Positions 4,801 through 31,368 of a DNA stretch of 35,256 nucleotides are shown here, piece after piece; the first letter of the stretch is position 1; each line of letters starts with the position of its first letter. Made by a program: the position numbers and the translations under genes. Origin of the DNA: a virus (taxonomy: Duplodnaviria > Heunggongvirae > Uroviricota > Caudoviricetes); IMG/VR virus record IMGVR_UViG_2684622582_000004, one strand, 5' to 3'. The notes below the pieces were generated by a model. That model did not search any database. It was not told where the DNA came from and saw only the letters and a program-made list of their open reading frames with translations.

Positions 4801-5279
4801 TATTCCGCCCCCGTCATCCCCGTGAATTTAGTCGCCATACTGCCAGCCTTACCGATGAGCGATTCTGCCTGTTTACCGATATCGCCATAAAGCGCGGCCA
4901 GTGATTCATCCACGCGGGTGAGTGACAGCGTAAAATCAATTTTCCGGGGTGTGCCGTCTGCAAAGAAAATACTCCCTGTTTCACTCACCCTGCTGATGAC
5001 ATACATGCCGTAAATCATGCCTGTGCCATCCAGCAACGGCCACGCCCGGCCTTCCTCTGCCATCAGTCTGAGCGTGGTCATCGTCAGCTTGCCGCCGGTC
5101 AGTTCGGGATAAAGCACACCGGCAAGCGTCATGTTTTCCTCACCAACGCCGAGAAACTGGTAGGCATCCCGTTTACCGATACGGGAATTTGACGGCCAGC
5201 GATAATCTGATTCACGCTGCATGGTCTGGTGTGGCAGCGTCTGGCGCATAAAAACAAACATACCTAACGCGAGCATCAT
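4800..5279 (-). CDS. U: tail protein U (P2 gpU-like), 159 aa
   Basis: Synteny and P2-matching length. Confidence 0.87.
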   Translation of the reverse strand: MMLALGMFVFMRQTLPHQTMQRESDYRWPSNSRIGKRDAYQFLGVGEENMTLAGVLYPELTGGKLTMTTLRLMAEEGRAWPLLDGTGMIYGMYVISRVSETGSIFFADGTPRKIDFTLSLTRVDESLAALYGDIGKQAESLIGKAGSMATKFTGMTGAE

Positions 5280-5293
5280 TTTTCGTCACCTCC

Positions 5294-7741
5294 TTAACCG
5301 TCATGCATCATGCTGGCACGGGCGCGCGCACGTTTATCCCGCTCGTATTTTTCGAGCGCATCCTGTAACTGGCGGTCAAGCTGTGTCCCCGGTGCAGTAC
5401 CACCCGTCAGGCTGATGTGATATTCGTTTTTACTCTGGTCCACATAAGAGCGGCCAGCCGGTGCCGTGACCGGCTGATAAGCCTGATAACCTGCATAAGA
5501 GCTGGTCGCCGGAATATAACCACCGCTGCCATACGTGGCGGCTTGAGTTCTGGCGGCGGTCTGGTCAAGTGTGTCTGACTCTTTGTTGATAACACCGAGT
5601 TTTTCCAGTACCCAGTCAATACCACTGCGCAGTTTGTTGAACGCATTAAGCGGCAGCATCAGCGCGTCAGCCAGTGCCTGCCCGAACATGACGCCCGTGT
5701 CACGGCAACGGTTCAGGGTGTCCTGGGTAGCTTTGACCGGGGCAATCAGGTTTTTAAACCACTGCCACGCGGCCTGTAACTTTTCACCCAGCCAGTCAAA
5801 CACCGGCTTAAGTGGCGTGAACAGTTCCCCCACTGGCGCAAATGCTGCTTTCAGCCCTTCAACCACACCGCCAAAGAATGCGCTGACAGGCTCCCAGTAT
5901 TTACGGATAAGCAACGCCCCGGCGACAATGGTGGCCACCACGGCCACAACCGGCCAGCTAATCGCCCCGATGGCGGTCATAACAGCACTGCCAACCGTCG
6001 TGAAGACTGCCCCCATTGCGCCTGCTGCCGCGATGATGGCATTAATGCCGGTGATAACCGGCCAGGCTACAAGACCAATTGCACCGATGATGCCAGTAAG
6101 CGCCAGTGCACCACCGACAATAAGGCCGATGGTTGACGCCAGTGATTTGTTTTTCTGGATCCAGCCGTCGAGTTTTAACACATACTTTGTGGCCGTCTGC
6201 GTGAGCTTACGCAGTGCGCCTGCCTGCTGGTCAAACAGGTCAGTCCCCACCGCCTCATAAGCGGACTGAAACTCCTTAAAGTCACCGCCGAGGTTGTCCT
6301 GCATGATATTTACCAGCTCTGCGGTCTTTCCGTCTGAGGCTTTAAACGCAGCGGTCAGTTTGTCCAGCTTTCCGGTTGAGGCGGCAGTCATCAGCACGGC
6401 GGCGGCTGAACTGGCCTCCTCCCCGAAAATGGTTTTCATGTATTCAGCCTGCTGGGCAGTACCGAGCCGGTTTTTCTCAAAGCTGGCCTGCATTTCTTTC
6501 AGAATGGTAAATACTGGCCGGGTGTTTCCCTTACTGTCTGAGGTTTTCACGCCAAGCTCTTTCAGTGCATCCCATGCTTTTCCCGTCGGTGCCTGCAGGC
6601 GGCTTAACACGGCACGGCTTCCCGTCCCCGCCATTGAACCGGTAATTTTTGCATCATGCAGCGCCCCGACCATTGCGGCGGTTTCTTCAATGCTGACACC
6701 AGCATTTTTTGACACAGGTGCGGCATAGGTCAGCGCATCGCTCATGCCATCAAAATCGGCGGCGGTTTTGTTCATCGTCATGGAGAGAACATCCCCGATA
6801 TGAGCGACCTTATCGTTTGAAAGCTGAAAGGCGGATTTCATCCCCATCAGCAGGGCGGCGTTTTCTTCCATCGTGCGGCGGTTCGCCAGCGCCATGTTCA
6901 GCGTGACCGGCGTTGCCGCCTGAATGGCATCAACATCCCCACCCGCTTTCGCGATGATAATCTGTGCACCGGCTGCATCATCTGCCGAGGCGGCGGTATT
7001 GTCGCCGAGCTGGCGCGCCTGCTTGCGTAGCGCGGCCATTTCGGCAGAGTCTTTTTCCACACCGAGCACGGCCTGTAATTCTGAGTTTTTCTGCGCAAAC
7101 TCATAACCGGGCATCAGCAGCTTAACTCCGGCCATCGTTCCCGCCGCCGCAATACCCACACCGGCAGCGCCCACCGAGGCCATATTTCCGGCCAGTTCCT
7201 TTCCGACCTGATAACGCTGTTTTACTGCATTAAGTTTTGCCTGTTGCGCACTGACACGCGCCAGCGCATCACGCTGACGGTTAAGCTGTGTGGTGGTTTC
7301 GCTGATACGATTTTTCAGCCCTCGTTCATCATGCGCCAGATTACGGGTATTAATACCCGCCTGACTCAATTCCTGACGCTGGCGCTGTACCGACAATCTC
7401 AGGCTGTTATATTTCGCCTGTAACTCAGACGCGTTTTTACGCGCGGCTTCCATTGCCTTTGCCTGTGCATTTGTCGGTCGTTCAGTATTTGTAAACTGGA
7501 CAGCCAGAGCTGCGGCTTCCTGTCTGGCTTTTTTCAGTTCCTGACCAGTCACGGCTAGCTGTGCACTGGTCTTGCGGAATCCCTCAATACGGGATGCGTG
7601 ACCGTTCAGCTCGCGCAGCGATTTTTGTGTTTCCCGGATGTCCCCCGACAGCGACTTACTCGCTGTGCGGATGGATTTAAACGGGCGGGATGCCTGGTCA
7701 ACAGCCCTGAGCAATACCTTTAATTTTACATTGTTACTCAT
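5294..7741 (-). CDS. T: tail tape-measure protein (P2 gpT-like), 815 aa
   Basis: Long Ala/Gln-rich coiled-coil-like N-terminal part and hydrophobic Gly/Ala-rich middle, typical of tape-measure proteins. Position between E/E' and U; P2 gpT length. Confidence 0.88.
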   Translation of the reverse strand: MSNNVKLKVLLRAVDQASRPFKSIRTASKSLSGDIRETQKSLRELNGHASRIEGFRKTSAQLAVTGQELKKARQEAAALAVQFTNTERPTNAQAKAMEAARKNASELQAKYNSLRLSVQRQRQELSQAGINTRNLAHDERGLKNRISETTTQLNRQRDALARVSAQQAKLNAVKQRYQVGKELAGNMASVGAAGVGIAAAGTMAGVKLLMPGYEFAQKNSELQAVLGVEKDSAEMAALRKQARQLGDNTAASADDAAGAQIIIAKAGGDVDAIQAATPVTLNMALANRRTMEENAALLMGMKSAFQLSNDKVAHIGDVLSMTMNKTAADFDGMSDALTYAAPVSKNAGVSIEETAAMVGALHDAKITGSMAGTGSRAVLSRLQAPTGKAWDALKELGVKTSDSKGNTRPVFTILKEMQASFEKNRLGTAQQAEYMKTIFGEEASSAAAVLMTAASTGKLDKLTAAFKASDGKTAELVNIMQDNLGGDFKEFQSAYEAVGTDLFDQQAGALRKLTQTATKYVLKLDGWIQKNKSLASTIGLIVGGALALTGIIGAIGLVAWPVITGINAIIAAAGAMGAVFTTVGSAVMTAIGAISWPVVAVVATIVAGALLIRKYWEPVSAFFGGVVEGLKAAFAPVGELFTPLKPVFDWLGEKLQAAWQWFKNLIAPVKATQDTLNRCRDTGVMFGQALADALMLPLNAFNKLRSGIDWVLEKLGVINKESDTLDQTAARTQAATYGSGGYIPATSSYAGYQAYQPVTAPAGRSYVDQSKNEYHISLTGGTAPGTQLDRQLQDALEKYERDKRARARASMMHDG

Positions 7742-8749: not shown

Positions 8750-9940
8750 TTAATTGCTGTTAACCGAGGTAACCAGACTTGCCAGGTATCTGGAAGTAAT
8801 ACGCTGGCGCAGGGTCAGGTTTTCGAGAGGAGGCACCGGGGTATAGTCGTAGTCGATATACAGTTTTCCGGCCTTGAGGGTTTCCGCATCATTGGCTTCT
8901 TCACTGAACCAGCATGTGCCATCCACGATATAACCGTTGTTTTTCAGTTCGCGGAATTTGGCATTAATGCCATCAATGATGTCACGAATCAGCGTTGCGG
9001 TAATTGGCTTATCAATAGCCCACATGTGCGCCTCGGCCATCGTGTCGGCCAGTACCTGCGCGGTGCGGGTGTAGCTTTCAAAGAGGAACAGCGGGTCATC
9101 AGAGCAGGTACGGTTACCCCAGAAGCGGAAGCCGTCGCGGCGAATCAGCGTAGTGATGCCTGACTCGTTAAGCAGGTCAGCATCAGTGCCGGACTTCTGC
9201 AAATCCCAGAATACAGAGGCGCTGATGCCGGTAACACCATTTACCCCGACGTTGGACAGCGTTTTATGCCAGCCCTGCTCCTGGTCGATTTTGGCACGCA
9301 GCCCCAGCGCACGGGCGGTGGCATACGCGGTGGCAGTGGTACTGGTAACCGTATCCCATGCGAGGAAATCCGGCCAGATGACCATCAGCTCACGCTGGCT
9401 GAAATTCTGACGGTAGGCTTTTGCCTCGGAAATGGTTTTACAGCCCCATGCGCTGATATACCCGAATGCATTCAGTTCCTGGCATACCGATGCCAGTGCG
9501 ACGGCAACCTCTTTGGTGTCCAGCCCCGGCACACCAAGAATGCGCGGTTTAACGCCGGTAACCGACTCAGCCCCCATCAGGGCTTTCAGTCCGGTGTACT
9601 GACCGTTTTCGTCAGTGGTGCCGATGATATTGGAAACGGTCTGCGCGAGTTTCGTTTCCTCGTCGTCGCCGGTGCTGTCTTCCACACGCACGACAACGGT
9701 GACCGGTTTTGACTGGTCGGCGATAGCCTGCAACGATGCCGCCAGCGTGCCTTTTTTACCGGCCTTTGCAATCGCGCTCTGCACATTGGTAATCAGCACC
9801 GGTTTATTGAGGGGAAAGGTTTCCGCATCCGCATCGCTGGCCGTGCAGACCATGCCGACAATGGCAGTGGATACGGTGGAAATGACGCGGGTGCCGTCGT
9901 TAATCTCCAGCACCTGCACGCCGTGATGATAGTCACTCAT
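8750..9940 (-). CDS. FI: tail sheath protein (P2 gpFI-like), 396 aa
   Basis: Synteny and P2-matching length; ATG at 9940. Confidence 0.88.
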   Translation of the reverse strand: MSDYHHGVQVLEINDGTRVISTVSTAIVGMVCTASDADAETFPLNKPVLITNVQSAIAKAGKKGTLAASLQAIADQSKPVTVVVRVEDSTGDDEETKLAQTVSNIIGTTDENGQYTGLKALMGAESVTGVKPRILGVPGLDTKEVAVALASVCQELNAFGYISAWGCKTISEAKAYRQNFSQRELMVIWPDFLAWDTVTSTTATAYATARALGLRAKIDQEQGWHKTLSNVGVNGVTGISASVFWDLQKSGTDADLLNESGITTLIRRDGFRFWGNRTCSDDPLFLFESYTRTAQVLADTMAEAHMWAIDKPITATLIRDIIDGINAKFRELKNNGYIVDGTCWFSEEANDAETLKAGKLYIDYDYTPVPPLENLTLRQRITSRYLASLVTSVNSN

Positions 9941-10105
9941 CCGTTTAACTCCGTGGTTAATGGGTGAGTGGTATTTTCTGTTGTGCCGGAGATGTCAGGC
10001 TATTTGTCCCGGTTGGCTAATCGACAGCACAACCACCGGTAAAGAAAAGGCGGGCAATTCGCTCACCTGCCCTGATTTGTACTCACTTATTTTCCGACTG
10101 ACAAT

Positions 10106-10213
10106 TTATTTACCTTCCAACTCAAGTCTAATCCGGATCCCCCAGATATGAGATATCTGAAGTGGCCTTTTTTGACCGATGGTACGGTCTTTATTCCACG
10201 GTGATGTTTTCAT
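10106..10213 (-). CDS. possible small basic protein (35 aa), speculative
   Basis: ATG at 10213 preceded by GGAGA about 7 nt upstream. The SD lies in the arm of a 9-bp-stem hairpin (10217-10225 / 10235-10243). No homology recognised. Confidence 0.2.
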   Translation of the reverse strand: MKTSPWNKDRTIGQKRPLQISHIWGIRIRLELEGK

Positions 10214-10319
10214 ATTCAAATCTCCTGCAATGTGGGAGATTTGAGTATGGTTGTCTCTCAAGAGCGAAAATAAGTCAACTATCACTAGTTGTTGCGCATG
10301 TACGTATTCTGTCAATTAA

Positions 10320-11162
10320 TTATTGACAATCATCAATTCTGGAATGATCAAAATCATCATATCGAATTATAGTCTGGTTGACTGTATCTATTGTTGGTGT
10401 CATTTCTGTTATAATATCCTGATAACCTAAAGAGTTAAATACATTTACTAAGGCCTCACACCGAAGGGCCGTAGCAATTACAAAATTATAAATTGCCAGC
10501 CGTTTATTTTCTTGTTTAACTGCAAGAATGAATTCGATAGCAGTAGTTTCATCACTTTGGATTGCATTATATAGAGATACTATATTTACCATATCATCAG
10601 AGAATGTATGTATTGAATCACAAAGGGGAACGTAATGGGCATGATAGTGTGTTTCCCAGCCAATTAATTCAAAAAGTTTTCTGGTTCCTGGATATTCAGG
10701 TGTATTTGGCCACAATCTATTAAATAGATCAGTTAGTTCTTTTCCCATGCGAATCCTTTCATTTGCTGCTGGATTAGTCATTCCTTTGGATTTTAAACAC
10801 TCCAGCCACCGTTTTCCATTACTATGAACTAATTTCTTACTAGCCTTGAGTAATGCTTGTGCATTTTCGCCATCATCTATTGCTATATAAAATTGATTGG
10901 CAGCCTGTTCTATTATAACCCTAGCTAATACTTCCGATGCTGAAAAGGCTCCTATATTCAAAGAAGAGATAGCCTGATTACTAAGTTCATTCAGTACATT
11001 AAAGTACTGTAAGACCATCAATTTTTGTTCCACACCCTTTAGGTTGTCTATTTTATTTTTATGCTCCTCAAATTTTGCATGGATATATTTATTTATCGCG
11101 GCTATTTTTTTTACATCTTCGTCAAGATCAAACGGGCAACGTCCAAACAATTCTTTTTTCAT
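10320..11162 (-). CDS. hypothetical protein, 280 aa, AT-rich cargo gene in the P2 Z/fun moron slot (function unknown)
   Basis: ATG at 11162 with AGGAGA SD 7 nt upstream and a TATAAT -10 at 11206-11201 (minus strand). Hand-counted sample lines are ~28-42% GC versus ~55% in flanking tail genes. No family motif recognised. Confidence 0.7.
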   Translation of the reverse strand: MKKELFGRCPFDLDEDVKKIAAINKYIHAKFEEHKNKIDNLKGVEQKLMVLQYFNVLNELSNQAISSLNIGAFSASEVLARVIIEQAANQFYIAIDDGENAQALLKASKKLVHSNGKRWLECLKSKGMTNPAANERIRMGKELTDLFNRLWPNTPEYPGTRKLFELIGWETHYHAHYVPLCDSIHTFSDDMVNIVSLYNAIQSDETTAIEFILAVKQENKRLAIYNFVIATALRCEALVNVFNSLGYQDIITEMTPTIDTVNQTIIRYDDFDHSRIDDCQ

Positions 11163-11200
11163 ATATTTCTCCTGTTGTACAAGCTTCCATAAGTTGGCAG

Positions 11201-11206
11201 ATTATA
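11201..11206 (-). promoter_or_regulatory. candidate sigma70 -10 hexamer (TATAAT) for the 280-aa cargo gene
   Basis: Perfect TATAAT about 35 nt upstream of the ATG. No good -35 seen. Confidence 0.3.
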
Positions 11207-11583
11207 CACTGAAGATTACCTATAAATAGCTGTGCGGGATAGCAGATCAGTGCAAGAAGTACAACCAAGTGAACTGTGCGTATTCAGATACCTGGCCTAA
11301 CGTTCGCGATAGCCGTCCCCTGCACAAAGCCATATATTAGATGTATTAGCTCAGACCTTATCTGACAGGTTGAGTAGGTAGAATCTAATCAAAGCTGACA
11401 GTCTGGTTTGGACTGTGAGTTCAACCGATGGATGCAACACACAGCGATCTACGGACATTACTAGCATAGCTGTGTATTAATCATCGGGGAGCAGGTCAGT
11501 CCGCTCCTAGCACAGAGCAGACTGTCAGATTAGGCTTTACTCTGTGCTATAGATACGTTAGCTCACTCCAGAGATCATACAAC

Positions 11584-12111
11584 TTATTGCGGCATTTCCG
11601 GCCATTCAGGATTTGCAGGATCCACACGGCTGACCAGAACACTGTAGCGTTCCCATGCTTCCAGTCGGCTACGCTCCTCATCTGTTGCCATATTCAGTCT
11701 GACAGAGCGTTCCAGTGGCTGAATGATAGTTTCAGCTTCGGAAAGCAAAGCTGACTTCTGTAATTCCGCCAGTTGCAGCTGTTCGTCTGCCGTATAAATC
11801 CGCTTAATCACAGCACCATCCTTAAACATCCATTTACCTGAGTCATCAGCACGTCGGTTGGCGGTAATATCAGGAACCTCGACAACGCTAAAACCTTCAG
11901 GGTTAAGCGTTGAAGCATCTCTGGTGATGCCGACAATTATATTATTCTCGTCGTAAACAATCTTTATCGTGTCTTCCTGAAAATTACTTACTTCCTCATA
12001 CCAGTTTTTTCCCTCTTCGGACCATAACCAGATAACATCAAAATTTTTTGTCAGTTGATATTGGGCAACAGTTTTTGGATTACCCGCAGTAATATTTTTT
12101 AAATGCTGCAT
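11584..12111 (-). CDS. G: tail fiber assembly chaperone (P2 gpG-like), 175 aa
   Basis: Immediately downstream of the tail fiber gene; P2 gpG length. Confidence 0.85.
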
Positions 12112-26868: not shown

Positions 26869-28701
26869 TCAAACAGAGCCCTGTTCAAAAACAGTATCAA
26901 AATATGGTAGGAGAGGATAAGCACACAGAAAGAAAATCAGGATGCATGCATATGTCGTTGTTTCATCGTAACAAGCATCAGTATATAAATTACCATGTGC
27001 TAATTTATGTCTTAAGGTTGCCCCACTCTTTCTGTTAAAAAGAACATCGATAGTCAAAACAAGATTTTTAGAAAAGATACTTTCCAAATCATCTCTGCAT
27101 TTATCTAGAAGCTGAGAAATACTTGTTGACTCCTCTAATCCCTTATCCAAATATCTAGTAGCATCCTTTCCACTAAGCTCATAATAATAACGAACCATAC
27201 CTTCCATTTGTGGTATTAAAAGATAAGCTGCACTGATGTAATCTCCCTGCCATAATTTGTAAAAGCCCAAATTAAAAATCTCCCTAAACTCCGGCTTGAC
27301 AATTGGACTAGTTGTAACCAATTTAACGAATGTTGACAACGTCAAGCCATGTTCTTGAGAAAGTACATAGCGAGCAGGTTCAAAGACACCGTTTACAAAA
27401 ATCTTATGAGTAATCTCGAAATTTCTTAGATATTGATCAATAACAACATCATCACTCATATCTTTTTTATTATCCAACGGCGGGATTGTATATATCTTAC
27501 GCCCACTCTCATCATTAATTTCTGTTCCAACAAAACTAGAGAATAAACTTTTTTCTGATAATCTTAAAACTTGTTCCCTCATGCTTTCAATATTTTCAAT
27601 CGGTGTTTCACTCATTAAAACTTTGAATATATCGGGCAAAGAACGCCCCGTCAGTTTTTTTTCACTTTCAGCAACCAAGTCACTAATATCAATAGAATGG
27701 CTTAAAGTGACATATTCACTCCTTACTTCTTCTCTCAAATTAGCAAGTTGTTCCTTTAAATCTTCTATCTGTTGGCTATCACCACCGTACTGTCTTAATT
27801 CAGAGATAGCTGTTCTTAACCAAGAGATCTTACCCATATTATCAGGTCGTTCTGTTGCAACTTTAATAGTAATATTTGCAGATGCCAGTTTACATCTCTT
27901 GGCACGTTCATACTCACCATTTTTTTCATAAATAACTGCACTTGTCATATAAAGTGATTTTACAGCATCATAATATTTTTTATCTTTATGCTGCTCAGCC
28001 ATCTTCTCAGCATTTTCCGCATACTGCAGATTATACCCATCAAAATCACGCACCATAAACCAAGTCAAATTATTGAAACCTTCAAAGATTAATCTTTCAT
28101 TTTGAATACTATAAAGAGAATGAATGGCATTTTTAATCGCCATGTTTCCTTCTGATTTTCTAGGGTAGACCATTTTATTAATGTGCAAAGCCCTAGCAAT
28201 ATAATCACGAGCAAAAATAAAGCAATTTAAATCACTTTCATCCATGCTTTCGTTTTTTATTATTAGCTTTTCAATTGCTATATTTAGCATTTCAGCATAG
28301 GAATCAATTGCTTTAATTGCCACGTCTTTATTTTTCCGATTATTACACCAAACAACATCATATATTCTTGATAACAAAAATGGATTGGTTATTTTTTGAG
28401 AAACATATAAAAGACAGTCATTCACCTGCTCATCAAAATCTTCAGGCAATATTGATCTTTTATTACCCCAAATCATTTGGGGTTCAAATGATGGAGTGTT
28501 GTTAACAACTTGCAAATTGAAACTATATAGCATACCAAAAAGAGATGCTAATTTTTTCTCTTTGGGGTTTTCTGATGACTCAGCAATCCCATCCAGATAT
28601 TTTTTTATTTTATGTGCATGAAATGTAACTGGTATATACATAAAAACACTATAATCTAGTGTTTCAAGCTCTTCCCTTGTAAGAACAAAGATATCATTCA
28701 T
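26869..28701 (-). CDS. hypothetical protein, ~610 aa, AT-rich cargo gene in the P2 old/tin moron slot (function unknown)
   Basis: ATG at 28701 preceded by AAGGTG SD (the ORF-track start at 28806 is TTG). A hand-counted sample (27001-27060) is ~33% GC. No Walker A, so not Old-like. C-terminal ...TLRHKLAHGNLY contains an R-x4-H pattern. Confidence 0.7.
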   Translation of the reverse strand: MNDIFVLTREELETLDYSVFMYIPVTFHAHKIKKYLDGIAESSENPKEKKLASLFGMLYSFNLQVVNNTPSFEPQMIWGNKRSILPEDFDEQVNDCLLYVSQKITNPFLLSRIYDVVWCNNRKNKDVAIKAIDSYAEMLNIAIEKLIIKNESMDESDLNCFIFARDYIARALHINKMVYPRKSEGNMAIKNAIHSLYSIQNERLIFEGFNNLTWFMVRDFDGYNLQYAENAEKMAEQHKDKKYYDAVKSLYMTSAVIYEKNGEYERAKRCKLASANITIKVATERPDNMGKISWLRTAISELRQYGGDSQQIEDLKEQLANLREEVRSEYVTLSHSIDISDLVAESEKKLTGRSLPDIFKVLMSETPIENIESMREQVLRLSEKSLFSSFVGTEINDESGRKIYTIPPLDNKKDMSDDVVIDQYLRNFEITHKIFVNGVFEPARYVLSQEHGLTLSTFVKLVTTSPIVKPEFREIFNLGFYKLWQGDYISAAYLLIPQMEGMVRYYYELSGKDATRYLDKGLEESTSISQLLDKCRDDLESIFSKNLVLTIDVLFNRKSGATLRHKLAHGNLYTDACYDETTTYACILIFFLCAYPLLPYFDTVFEQGSV

Positions 28702-28820
28702 CGTTTTCACCTTTTTCAGTATAAATTTGCACGCATTATTATTAGCAACATAATCATCAATAGTTAACACATGCAGATAGACAGCAATTTTACTATTATG
28801 CAACAAATTAAATCAGATGT

Positions 28821-31103
28821 TTATTGCTCTGAATAACAATAAAACCAACTCCACTCATCAGCGACCGGATACGTAAATTTTTTCCCGTTGTAATTTACGG
28901 TCGCTCCACGCGCCAGCGCCTCCATCTCCCATCGCTGCGGCCTGATACCGTTCTGAGCAAGGTCAACGCGGATACGGATAATTTGCATTCGTTCCGACCG
29001 GGTCAGTCTGGCCGATGGCGCTATTTCATGCGGTTTTAGCGGGCTTCCGTTTCTTTGCTGACGATTTAGCGTTCTCAGCCCGTGTTTTAATGCGCCCCTG
29101 AGCGCCTTCACGACCTCCGGGTCATTCCATTCGATAACACCGTCATTAACCAGATTAAGCACTGCTGCGGCGTGCTCAGAAGGTGTGGGAGCCGGTAACG
29201 AAGTATCACCACCAGTGAGCTTTCCACAGTTATTGACAGGACTCCGAGGCGCGGCGATGCCGCTTTTTAAAGTCAAAGGCTCAACGACCGGAACTTTCGG
29301 CACAATGCGCCAGTCCGTCGTTCTGGTGATATGAATATGACGCGCGCCGAGATGCGGCGCGTAAATGCCGACCACTCTCTCGACTTCTTCCTCGTACTCG
29401 TTAACTTCATCCGACGGGCTACGGGCGACTCTGACAGTCTGACAATCGCGCGGGACATTTGCCCCACCCTGCGCGCTGATATACAACGCAAAATCACCAC
29501 TGTCTGCGGCGGCGCGTGCAGCCTCGACGCGCTCGTCAAACTCATCAGCAATGCTGACGCCGCGCGGCAATTTGCGTAGTTCACGGTAAGCCCCCATTGT
29601 CGGCAGGCCAACCGTTTTAAATTGCGGGATGCGCCACGTTGACGCCCATGCGGTAACAGCCGCTGCAGTGTCTTTCAGCGGCCTGCCGGTGTCGTTATCG
29701 AGCTGACCATCCAGTGCATAGCCGTCGATGTTTTTTGAAATGTATTTCGCGATATATCCCGCAGCACCGCCCCGGTTAAGGTGTTTTGCCTGAAAACGGT
29801 TTCGCGCGGCTCCTCTTTCGTCGCCATCCTCTTTGAGCGCATAGCGACGCATGATTTCGATAATCTGGTTACGCTGGCGTGAATTACAAAAAAGCATCAT
29901 ATGCCAGTGCGGCGTTCCGTCGTGGTGTGGCTCGACGACACGCAAACCGTAGACCTGTAAATCATTATCCTTGAATGCCGTGCGCATCAGGCTCCAGATA
30001 CGGCAGAGATAACGCTGCGCATCCTTTGGATTAAATGCCTCATCGTTCCAGCCGTGATTAAGCTGCACGGTTTTACTTTCGCCTTTTCCTACCTGACGTG
30101 TCGGGTGATACTTTGACGGCGCGGTCAGCGTGATAAACATCCCCACATCACCCTCTGCAGCGGCGTAACGCTCAATACCGGCAATGGTGTTCATCAGCTC
30201 CATCCGGCGAATTTCAGGATTAGAAATACTGCCCATCACCTTACTGATAAGGTCGATGCGCTCGCCGGTTTCCCTGTTTTCAAGGTCACACGATTTAAGA
30301 AATTCCAGATTTGCCTGGCGGCGCGCACGCACATCACGAATGGCGTGTTTACTGGCATAAGGAGAACGGTCTTTATTGACCTCCCCGACAGCTATCAGTA
30401 ACGCTTCATGCCAGCGCATACGCTGGCCTTTAAGCTGATGAGTCCACCACTCATCGTTAAACAGACGGGCAATGGCAGAATATGCCTGCCTCGTGGTCAT
30501 CTGTCCTTTACGGTATTTTTTCCAGTAGAGCGGGGAAATATTGAAAGCACGTGCAGCGCCAGCAACATGACCATACAGGTGAGCCTGCGCCTCATCCGTA
30601 AACAGCGATTCTTTTTCACCATGCGCATCAACCCATGCATCGCAGAGTTCCTCATACATCATGAAAAGCTGCGATGAGATACGGGCGGCAAACTTTTTCA
30701 GCTCCTTGTCATTCATTCCCGGCAGGCGCGCATAGTGGTCACGCTCTGCCAGAAACAGCAACGACGCGTCGGTGTTCATTTCATGGCGCTGATTCACACG
30801 CTCAATGCGCGGCCATAAACGACGCTGAAAAGTAGATGTGAGGAAATAAAACCCGTGCACCGGGCTTTTATTGCGCCGGATGTAGTCATAGCGTGAAGTA
30901 AACAGCGAGCGCAAAAAGTAAGGCAGGCGGTTAATCGTGGATAAAACACCTTGCACCTGACGCATCTCGTCACGTGTAAGAGGTCTTTCGCGCCCGACAG
31001 CCTCGCGTGGCGCGTTCCATGCATAAGCACCGGTAAACGCCTTACCGGTGCCTGCGGTAAATGCTGACGGAGGGACAAAACGCCCGGAGGCTTTAACGGC
31101 CAT
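28821..31103 (-). CDS. A: replication initiation endonuclease (P2 gpA-like), 760 aa
   Basis: ATG at 31103 (MAVKASGRFVPP...); the ORF-track start at 31145 is TTG. Size and position as P2 gpA. Confidence 0.87.
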   Translation of the reverse strand: MAVKASGRFVPPSAFTAGTGKAFTGAYAWNAPREAVGRERPLTRDEMRQVQGVLSTINRLPYFLRSLFTSRYDYIRRNKSPVHGFYFLTSTFQRRLWPRIERVNQRHEMNTDASLLFLAERDHYARLPGMNDKELKKFAARISSQLFMMYEELCDAWVDAHGEKESLFTDEAQAHLYGHVAGAARAFNISPLYWKKYRKGQMTTRQAYSAIARLFNDEWWTHQLKGQRMRWHEALLIAVGEVNKDRSPYASKHAIRDVRARRQANLEFLKSCDLENRETGERIDLISKVMGSISNPEIRRMELMNTIAGIERYAAAEGDVGMFITLTAPSKYHPTRQVGKGESKTVQLNHGWNDEAFNPKDAQRYLCRIWSLMRTAFKDNDLQVYGLRVVEPHHDGTPHWHMMLFCNSRQRNQIIEIMRRYALKEDGDERGAARNRFQAKHLNRGGAAGYIAKYISKNIDGYALDGQLDNDTGRPLKDTAAAVTAWASTWRIPQFKTVGLPTMGAYRELRKLPRGVSIADEFDERVEAARAAADSGDFALYISAQGGANVPRDCQTVRVARSPSDEVNEYEEEVERVVGIYAPHLGARHIHITRTTDWRIVPKVPVVEPLTLKSGIAAPRSPVNNCGKLTGGDTSLPAPTPSEHAAAVLNLVNDGVIEWNDPEVVKALRGALKHGLRTLNRQQRNGSPLKPHEIAPSARLTRSERMQIIRIRVDLAQNGIRPQRWEMEALARGATVNYNGKKFTYPVADEWSWFYCYSEQ

Positions 31104-31368
31104 ATGAGCCAAAAGCCTCTGAACAACGCTTGCTGAGTTGCTCAACCTGCGCGTTTAAATCAGCAAAAGATTTTGCGCTTCCGGTCAGAATATCGTGATG
31201 CATCAGGCCGGAAACGAGCTGGCCTAATTTCGGGTAATAACCAACCACCGCCAGCCATTCCTGACCGGCGTTTTTACCGCTTTCCGCTCTCTTTTTCTCG
31301 TGGAGAATAAACTGAAAGCTGTCACTGGTAACGACATAACGTTCGCCAATTTCAATACGAATACTCAT
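31093..31368 (-). CDS. small early protein (P2 orf83 position), 91 aa
   Basis: Synteny only. Confidence 0.6.
   Translation of the reverse strand: MSIRIEIGERYVVTSDSFQFILHEKKRAESGKNAGQEWLAVVGYYPKLGQLVSGLMHHDILTGSAKSFADLNAQVEQLSKRCSEAFGSYGR

Follow-up and report, generated by a model that had tools for sequence, protein, structure and literature searches.

Positions 10320 to 11162 of the 35,256-nt stretch of tailed-phage DNA analyzed here (IMG/VR record IMGVR_UViG_2684622582_000004; the whole stretch is called the window) encode, on the minus strand, a stand-alone protein of 280 amino acids (aa) that belongs to the DUF5677 family. The gene lies between tail sheath gene FI and tail-fiber assembly gene G of a P2-like prophage. 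It is cargo of a mobile cassette, and its family recurs in prophage hotspots beside known defense systems. We propose that the gene landed in the Z/fun slot of the prophage as the cargo of a small site-specific recombination cassette, which consists of a 24-nt palindromic site, a leader of ~335 nt bearing a −10 box and a ribosome-binding site, the DUF5677 gene itself, and a small tyrosine recombinase that a ~1-kb deletion has cut to 35 codons in the window. The find is best described as a DUF5677 protein that stands alone and rides on a recombinase cassette. As for function, we put at about 0.5 the probability that this protein is a single-protein anti-phage determinant expressed in the lysogen from its own promoter.

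A DUF5677 gene as cassette cargo in the Z/fun slot

The open reading frame (ORF), at about 35% GC, has a foreign composition. In 300-nt windows, GC content falls to 0.32-0.38 over positions ~10150-11350, whereas FI has 0.55-0.59 and the beginning of G ~0.47-0.49. The FI-G junction of P2 itself is annotated as the site of fun(Z). An initial reading made from the letters alone (the sequence-only reading) had described an AT-rich 280-aa gene in the Z/fun slot between sheath and fiber-assembly genes, and both the composition and the placement hold. Since homologs reach down to ~20% identity and the ratio of nonsynonymous to synonymous substitution rates (dN/dS) is 0.20-0.36 among five close copies, this is not a chance ORF. 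It is a real gene under purifying selection, with a reading frame that is intact in all 57 complete Escherichia coli genomes that carry it. The protein is filed in RefSeq as WP_000711882.1, “DUF5677 domain-containing protein,” and the interval from FI to G (9941-11583) is 99.9% identical to that of the P2-like prophage found in E. coli strains IHE3034 and MS7163. The features of this interval and of its flanks are as follows, in window positions.

8750-9940, minus strand: tail sheath gene FI (Phage_sheath_1, E 8e-33)
9941-10108: P2 backbone, pF late promoter/activator-site region, 97.6% identical to P2 17484-17651
10106-10213, minus strand: remnant of a small tyrosine recombinase, 35 codons followed by a TAA from the P2 backbone
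10211-10249: 15-bp inverted repeat (stem-loop, 93% complementary) at the recombinase ribosome site and start codon
10320-11162, minus strand: stand-alone DUF5677 coding sequence, intact ORF with ATG start, 280 aa
11163-11498, minus strand: conserved non-coding leader of ~335 nt, traveling with the DUF5677 gene
11168-11173, minus strand: Shine-Dalgarno sequence AGGAGA, five nt 5′ of the ATG, read directly
11201-11206, minus strand: TATAAT −10 box, probable own promoter with a poor −35, read directly
11351-11467, minus strand: 38-codon ORF within the leader, open in lambdoid copies
11360-11368 and 11388-11410: CTGTCAG/CTGACAG repeats in the leader
~11425-11487: imperfect long hairpin in the leader
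11499-11522, minus strand: 24-nt palindromic site GTCTGCTC-TGTGCTAG-GAGCGGAC at the G-proximal junction, candidate tyrosine-recombinase core site
11584-12111, minus strand: tail-fiber assembly gene G, lambda-gpK-type (Caudo_TAP, E 7e-34)

The cassette can be delimited on both sides. On the G side, the palindrome consists of two 8-nt arms around an 8-nt spacer and occurs once in the window, where none is expected by chance. It falls within the “left inverted repeat” annotated in the GenBank features of P2-EC46 and P2-EC58, the latter element corresponding to window 11497-11583. A 14-nt core of the palindrome is present in 21 of the 30 loci examined, each time at a boundary of a DUF5677 cassette: on the leader end of the P2, Buttiauxella and guaA copies, and on the recombinase end of lambdoid copies (7490-7512 in locus L021). 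In P2-EC46 (locus L004), the palindrome occurs both at the left junction (91-114) and between two unrelated cargo ORFs (1611-1634), so that the same boundary core site is common to unrelated cassettes. The Z-region cassettes of P2-like coliphages (GenBank AJ512680 and AJ512683) hold unrelated cargo ORFs within the same bounding repeat elements, with the 24-nt site at their left junction. This anatomy is what one would expect if gene cassettes were delimited by a core site for a tyrosine recombinase, which makes the palindrome a candidate for such a site, and its distribution suggests an integron-like cassette platform. Like integron-type cassettes, the DUF5677 cassette would combine a candidate core site with a tyrosine recombinase (in its S88-type form, described below). 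However, the recombinase of integrons resides in the platform, whereas here a 194-aa enzyme lies inside the cassette and is truncated in the window.

On the FI side, the junction is at 10108|10109, as placed by matching the right repeat to that of P2-EC58, and the adjoining P2 segment is the counterpart of P2 17484-17651, where the annotation places the pF activator site and a transcription start. Next to this junction lies the recombinase remnant, which the sequence-only reading overlooked and which RefSeq names “integrase, incomplete.” Its intact counterpart, a 194-aa Phage_integrase protein reduced to the catalytic domain, is found in E. coli S88 and 51 other genomes. Accordingly, in 52 of the 55 genomes with the insert at this slot, the insert is 1 kb longer and has an intact recombinase downstream of DUF5677. 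Relative to S88, the window lacks 1,046 bp (4955-6000 of S88 locus L002), as do IHE3034, MS7163 and AST215, and this deletion fuses the 35 remaining recombinase codons to what is left of the “right inverted repeat,” its final 38 nt (10071-10108). A recombinase gene inside or beside the cassette is thus seen in S88-type and Buttiauxella copies, the window keeping 35 codons of it and having no intact ORF in the cassette other than DUF5677. The recombinase has been inactivated twice independently, once by the deletion seen in the window and once by frameshifting in lambdoid prophages, while DUF5677 is intact throughout. Together with the dN/dS values, this shows that the cargo gene is what is kept.

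Two side observations concern the same region. The S88-type cassette encodes an additional 125-aa multi-pass membrane protein on the opposite strand (5121-5498 of locus L002), between the recombinase and the right repeat; it has no Pfam match and no PADLOC match, and it is deleted in the window. In addition, identity to S88 jumps from 90.2% (9701-10108) to 99.6% (10109-11800) exactly at the FI-side junction, and compared with IHE3034 the sheath protein is only 95.5% identical, although identity is 100% for the cassette, G and H. It follows that P2-like prophages also exchange DNA by homologous recombination with a breakpoint at this slot.

Family, fold and conserved residues of the DUF5677 protein

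The 280-aa protein matches Pfam PF18928 (DUF5677) over residues 50-194, with 40.1 bits against a cutoff of 27.1, which supersedes the statement of the sequence-only reading that no motif could be assigned. All 67 aligned relatives match the same family (best E 3e-20), and none other is matched consistently. Among 1.84 billion cluster representatives, searched exhaustively with a profile, only 80 relatives emerged at E ≤ 1e-3. These are, fragments aside, ~260-340 aa long, the sub-family of the window protein spanning 261-330 aa. The family is therefore rare and single-domain. A pattern scan with the closer alignment matched only two species-representative genomes. Among PHROGs, only phrog_4167 (“unknown function”) was matched, and an NCBIfam scan of the protein gave no useful match.

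The protein is predicted to be acidic (32 kDa, pI 5.7), with zero membrane segments. It was modeled by AlphaFold2 with a predicted local distance difference test score (pLDDT) of 95.3 and a predicted template modeling score (pTM) of 0.92, as a bundle of ten helices with zero strands. The fold search that the sequence-only reading had proposed returned no relative: Foldseek found nothing at E ≤ 1e-3 in the PDB or among the viral models of BFVD, and a profile search of the PDB by sequence yielded nothing relevant.

Conservation across the 67-sequence alignment is concentrated at a few positions, nearly all of them polar. Arg81 is invariant, Glu85, Asn89, Tyr173, His185, Asp190 and Asn193 are each conserved in at least 94% of sequences, and Glu59, Glu77, Glu170, Asp182, Ser183 and Glu218 in 76-88%. 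When mapped onto the model, Arg81, Glu85 and Asn89 are found at i, i+4 and i+8 along helix 3, while Asp182, Ser183, His185, Asp190 and Asn193 are located at the junction of helices 7 and 8. We infer that the conserved residues line a carboxylate- and histidine-rich pocket for catalysis or ligand binding, and this Arg/Glu/Asn and His/Asp/Asn cluster suggests an enzyme, which may work like a small helical-bundle nuclease. In our proposal, the protein is soluble, acidic and all-helical, and probably an enzyme whose pocket would bring together one face of helix 3 (Arg81/Glu85/Asn89) and the turn that links helices 7 and 8 (Asp182/Ser183/His185/Asp190/Asn193). Its target would be phage or host nucleic acid, or a nucleotide. 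Whatever the activity, the combination of a confident model and few invariant residues provides clear targets for mutation.

The HEPN superfamily was considered, but the protein is not demonstrably a member. HEPN RNases display an Rx4-6H motif, whereas the DUF5677 protein has R-x3-E-x3-N and D-S-x-H-x4-D-x2-N: no conserved Arg is followed by a His 4-6 residues on, Arg81 being followed by Glu85 and Asn89. The HEPN models in Pfam are unmatched by any of the 67 relatives and, when the fold was compared with HEPN, generic helical bundles scored equally or higher.

Distribution and genomic neighborhoods

The gene is carried by 57 of 5,426 complete E. coli genomes. P2-type flanks are present in 1,671 of these genomes, 55 of which have the insert. 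By contrast, neither DNA nor protein searches found the gene in 50,697 deposited phage genomes, where only the flanks match. Such a sparse distribution shows that it is cargo and not a structural gene, as the sequence-only reading had surmised; that reading would have been abandoned had the gene been a conserved structural or assembly component of P2-like phages, and it is not. Carriers at the P2 slot are mostly human or avian extra-intestinal isolates, such as IHE3034, S88 and APEC (avian pathogenic E. coli) O1/O2:K1.

The cassette is not confined to P2-like prophages. The block composed of leader, DUF5677 and recombinase is 96.6% identical in Buttiauxella, where it sits beside a Tn3 transposase and a resolvase, and identity is ~90% for the copies in Qin/Rac-like lambdoid prophages, such as that of enteropathogenic E. 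coli (EPEC) E2348/69, where it lies just after replication gene P. The order leader-DUF5677-recombinase is common to the P2-slot, Buttiauxella and lambdoid copies. Another copy, 94% identical (BS0013), is found without recombinase downstream of guaA in another bacterium. The contexts of the window gene and of eight relatives are listed below.

Window type: P2 G-FI slot
94% copy (guaA island): PLD-family nuclease next
~88% identical protein: directly beside a Septu pair (PtuA, E 2e-165; PtuB, E 1e-83), in the lambdoid slot that follows gene P
53% relative: ordinary chromosomal context
44% relative: preceded by a lambda-P remnant, with Lamassu LmuA/LmuC/LmuB and an integrase 3 kb away
43% relative: near TrbL, in a conjugative-element fragment
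42% relative: OLD/Gabija-like ATPase and C5 methylase nearby, in a lambdoid prophage
41% relative (enterobacterial-type prophage, locus L035, 7020-10546): after lambda P, then a C5 methylase, PF20553 and a HATPase_c_3 protein
22% Leptospira relative (locus L033, 2922-7151): island bounded by an integrase, with the methylase/PF20553/HATPase_c_3 set again and Vsr in addition

Most of these nine contexts are therefore mobile elements, and in more than half a recognized defense or restriction-like module is present within ~6 kb. As for a dedicated partner, no gene is conserved next to DUF5677: the downstream genes of the relatives are mutually unrelated and have no PADLOC match. This agrees with the single-gene nature proposed by the sequence-only reading.

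A C5 methylase, a PF20553 (“Methyltransf_35”) protein and a HATPase_c_3 protein accompany both the 22% and the 41% relative, which could be either a coincidence of defense islands or a functional link. Separately, an 8,461-bp circular “plasmid” (NZ_CP148379.1, locus L031) consists only of a lambdoid segment, with DicC/YdaT, replication O/P, DUF5677, a dead recombinase, Septu, hokD and rem, and has no annotated plasmid replicon gene. It may be an assembly artifact or an excised circle.

Candidate anti-phage function and its alternatives

The defense reading rests on circumstantial evidence: hotspot position, defense neighbors, the low dN/dS, a machine-learning score and a reported domain link to the defense protein DitA. 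In P2, the slot holds fun(Z), which blocks T5. Fun(Z) and the DUF5677 gene share the same G-FI position, and both are non-essential lysogenic-conversion cargo. However, Fun(Z) (NP_046777) is a 528-aa protein whose gene runs opposite to FI and G, and homology between the two proteins was rejected (hhalign probability 0.2%). Elsewhere, the neighbors of DUF5677 relatives include Septu, Lamassu, an OLD/Gabija-like ATPase, C5 methylases and a PLD nuclease.

The Aditi defense system, to which DitA belongs, was reportedly described by Millman and colleagues in 2022. The links to it come from DefensePredictor (Science 2026, PMC13092281). An E. coli DUF5677 cluster figures there among the putative novel defense genes, with a mean log-odds of 5.74 against a strict cutoff of 4 in 3,000 E. 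coli strains (Table S10, PMC13092281). The same table gives an HHblits match of the cluster to Aditi DitA (probability 96, coverage 0.37), and Table S5 maps DitA residues 276-427 to PF18928 with a probability of 99. In the covered text of its tables of tested, quantified and validated units, DUF5677 is absent. The cluster representative is a 219-aa partial protein, WP_235778200.1 (PMC13092281). The only E. coli DUF5677 proteins returned by our searches are the window protein and an 87-88% identical variant, the latter also as 218-219-aa partials, and the cluster is probably the same family as the window protein.

According to this published profile comparison, the C-terminal part of DitA would be the closest known relative of the window protein, both being assigned to DUF5677. 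There are differences. Full-length DitA is taken to exceed ~430 aa, whereas the window protein has 280 aa and lacks the ~275-residue N-terminal region, as does its whole sub-family of 261-330 aa. Aditi has a second gene, DitB, whereas the window cassette has no DitB-like or other conserved partner. Since the window gene has neither a DitB partner nor the N-terminal region of DitA, and matches no defense model, membership in Aditi as defined was rejected. A second protein search added nothing new and returned zero long DitA-like proteins. Other single-gene cargo offers a looser parallel: the DUF4238 protein described by Rousset et al. 2022 and the PADLOC candidate PDC-S39 are likewise stand-alone, low-GC cargo of P2-like hotspots (PMC9122126), but no sequence relation of the DUF5677 protein to any PADLOC model was detected. 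That study tested the cos-proximal hotspot, not the G-FI slot (PMC9122126).

We propose that the protein, expressed from the prophage, acts as a determinant of the superinfection-exclusion or abortive-infection type. That protection would proceed enzymatically through the R/E/N-H/D/N pocket is a narrower claim, to which we give a low probability. More speculative in scope, and in our view unlikely, is the idea that the single DUF5677 domain alone is both a working effector and the catalytic core of Aditi. It would be moved between P2-like prophages, lambdoid prophages and transposon-bearing islands by a self-contained defense cassette with a promoter-bearing leader, a catalytic-domain-only tyrosine recombinase and the 24-nt site, and the G-FI slot would be an integron-like platform for immunity genes.

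Several points weigh against the defense reading. There is no canonical nuclease, ATPase or HEPN Rx4-6H motif in the protein, in keeping with the absence of ATPase and nuclease signatures noted by the sequence-only reading. The defense-profile scan which that reading had also recommended returned zero families: PADLOC-DB 2.0.0, where the presence of DitA models is unconfirmed, gave zero matches at E ≤ 1 for the window protein and four relatives. In a published test in Enterococcus faecalis against six Enterococcus phages, five of nine candidates were protective, and a Bacillota DUF5677 ORF was not one of the five (PMC12632615). If that ORF were a DitA homolog tested without DitB, this negative result would be uninformative. 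The neighborhood evidence is guilt by association, since prophage hotspots also carry anti-defense and conversion genes. Finally, the promoter lacks a good −35, which makes expression in the lysogen an assumption.

The expression signals themselves are well conserved. The AGGAGA ribosome-binding site, or AGGAGG, is retained in four of the five aligned independent copies, the BS0013 copy having a weaker AGGGGA, and the −10 region CAGTGTATAAT is invariant across five aligned copies. The sequence-only reading had credited the gene with its own TATAAT and AGGAGA. Both are present, but a consensus promoter scan called no full sigma-70 promoter because the −35 region is poor. The TATAAT is ~40 nt from the ATG, so most of the leader would be upstream DNA and not 5′ untranslated region, unless there is late-operon read-through from G; no terminator-like site was found between G and the DUF5677 gene on the minus strand.

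Were phage protection confirmed, it would give DUF5677 a function and provide a 280-residue, single-gene handle on the chemistry of Aditi, whose mechanism is unknown. The protein is a compact, tractable entry to an uncharacterized defense domain. A defense candidate in the G-FI slot would be expected by specialists, and the machine-learning screen had already flagged the E. coli cluster, probably of the same family. The cassette anatomy offers a testable mechanism for the swapping of cargo in the P2 G-FI hotspot and its sharing with lambdoid prophages, recombination processes at P2/P4 hotspots having been described in a 2026 survey as remaining to be elucidated (PMC13586616). Without a phenotype, the locus would be an ordinary orphan moron.

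Among the alternatives, the one that fares best, which we nonetheless consider unlikely, is that DUF5677 is a lysogenic-conversion or counter-defense gene: an inhibitor of defense, a modifier of a metabolite, or a fitness factor of extra-intestinal E. coli. It would account for the zero PADLOC matches, the one negative DUF5677 test and the predominance of human and avian extra-intestinal isolates among P2-slot carriers, and it fits both the mixed content of prophage hotspots, where anti-defense and conversion genes are found as well as defense genes, and the fact that P2 fun(Z) also alters sensitivity to 5-fluorodeoxyuridine (FUdR), according to the P2 annotation. Yet the family is also found on non-phage islands (the Leptospira integrase island, the guaA island and the conjugative-element fragment), it sits beside defense systems and not opposite to them, the machine-learning score favors defense, and DitA of a validated defense system is reported to have the same domain.

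The leader bears on a second alternative, a selfish stabilization module in which a toxin-like DUF5677 would be restrained by a leader RNA or by the 38-codon ORF, any phage phenotype being secondary. The sequence-only reading had pointed out the non-coding leader beside the gene. It travels with DUF5677, as part of the imported cassette and not of P2: it aligns with the lambdoid copies, is 96.5% identical at the Buttiauxella locus, and is about as conserved as the coding sequence across three unrelated contexts, only three sequence variants of it existing. Moreover, its sense strand folds with a z-score of −2.59, better than all 100 shuffles, and the 38-codon ORF is open in lambdoid copies. 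These properties would suit such a module, but others argue against it. The BS0013 copy has an intact DUF5677 gene with only the proximal ~225 nt of the leader; the distal third is gone, and with it the hairpin and the start of the 38-codon ORF. That small ORF has no ribosome site. A repeat search found no tandem repeats in the leader, including those of the ToxI type, an Rfam scan of 9800-11800 gave zero matches at E ≤ 1, and the upstream regions of distant homologs are unrelated. We consider a stabilization module improbable. Counted by eye, synonymous and nonsynonymous changes in the 38-codon ORF are about equal in number. Most likely, the leader carries promoter, regulatory and recombinase-binding sequences; its CTGTCAG/CTGACAG repeats are similar to a backbone repeat at 11516-11531.

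It is more improbable again that DUF5677 belongs to the mobility machinery, as a directionality or regulatory factor of the neighboring small tyrosine recombinase. In Bacillota, DUF5677 is enriched next to serine recombinases (PMC12632615), and the conserved order in the P2-slot, Buttiauxella and lambdoid copies would point the same way. However, DUF5677 remains intact under purifying selection where the recombinase is dead, and neither the 22-53% relatives nor the BS0013 copy has an adjacent recombinase. Known directionality factors are small and basic, unlike this 280-aa acidic protein with its predicted enzyme-like pocket. In turn, by match to the first ~160 nt, the small-recombinase family is present on at least 155 further plasmid records without DUF5677. 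It looks like a general mobility gene and not a functional partner of DUF5677. The 5′ end of the recombinase with its upstream hairpin (10109-10268) is 88-93% identical to ~200-aa “site-specific integrase” genes of plasmids, and the enterobacterial plasmids with this small integrase are mostly conjugative, with variable neighbor genes.

Least credible of all is that the gene is a passenger without function, or serves P2 in structure or assembly: the location between tail genes in the same orientation and the lack of a demonstrated function would fit, but a dN/dS well below 1, the frame intact in 57 of 57 complete genomes and the foreign composition do not, and absence from 97% of the E. coli genomes with P2 flanks and from all 50,697 phage genomes effectively refutes a structural role.

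The same prophage has another hotspot, flanked by replication gene A (28821-31145) on one side and the portal gene on the other. It is occupied by a 645-aa ORF of low GC content (26869-28806, minus strand, GC 0.34) that matches the PADLOC candidate PDC-S39 (E 3e-84), Pfam DUF7380 and, weakly, DUF4209, which makes it a second candidate for single-gene defense in this prophage.

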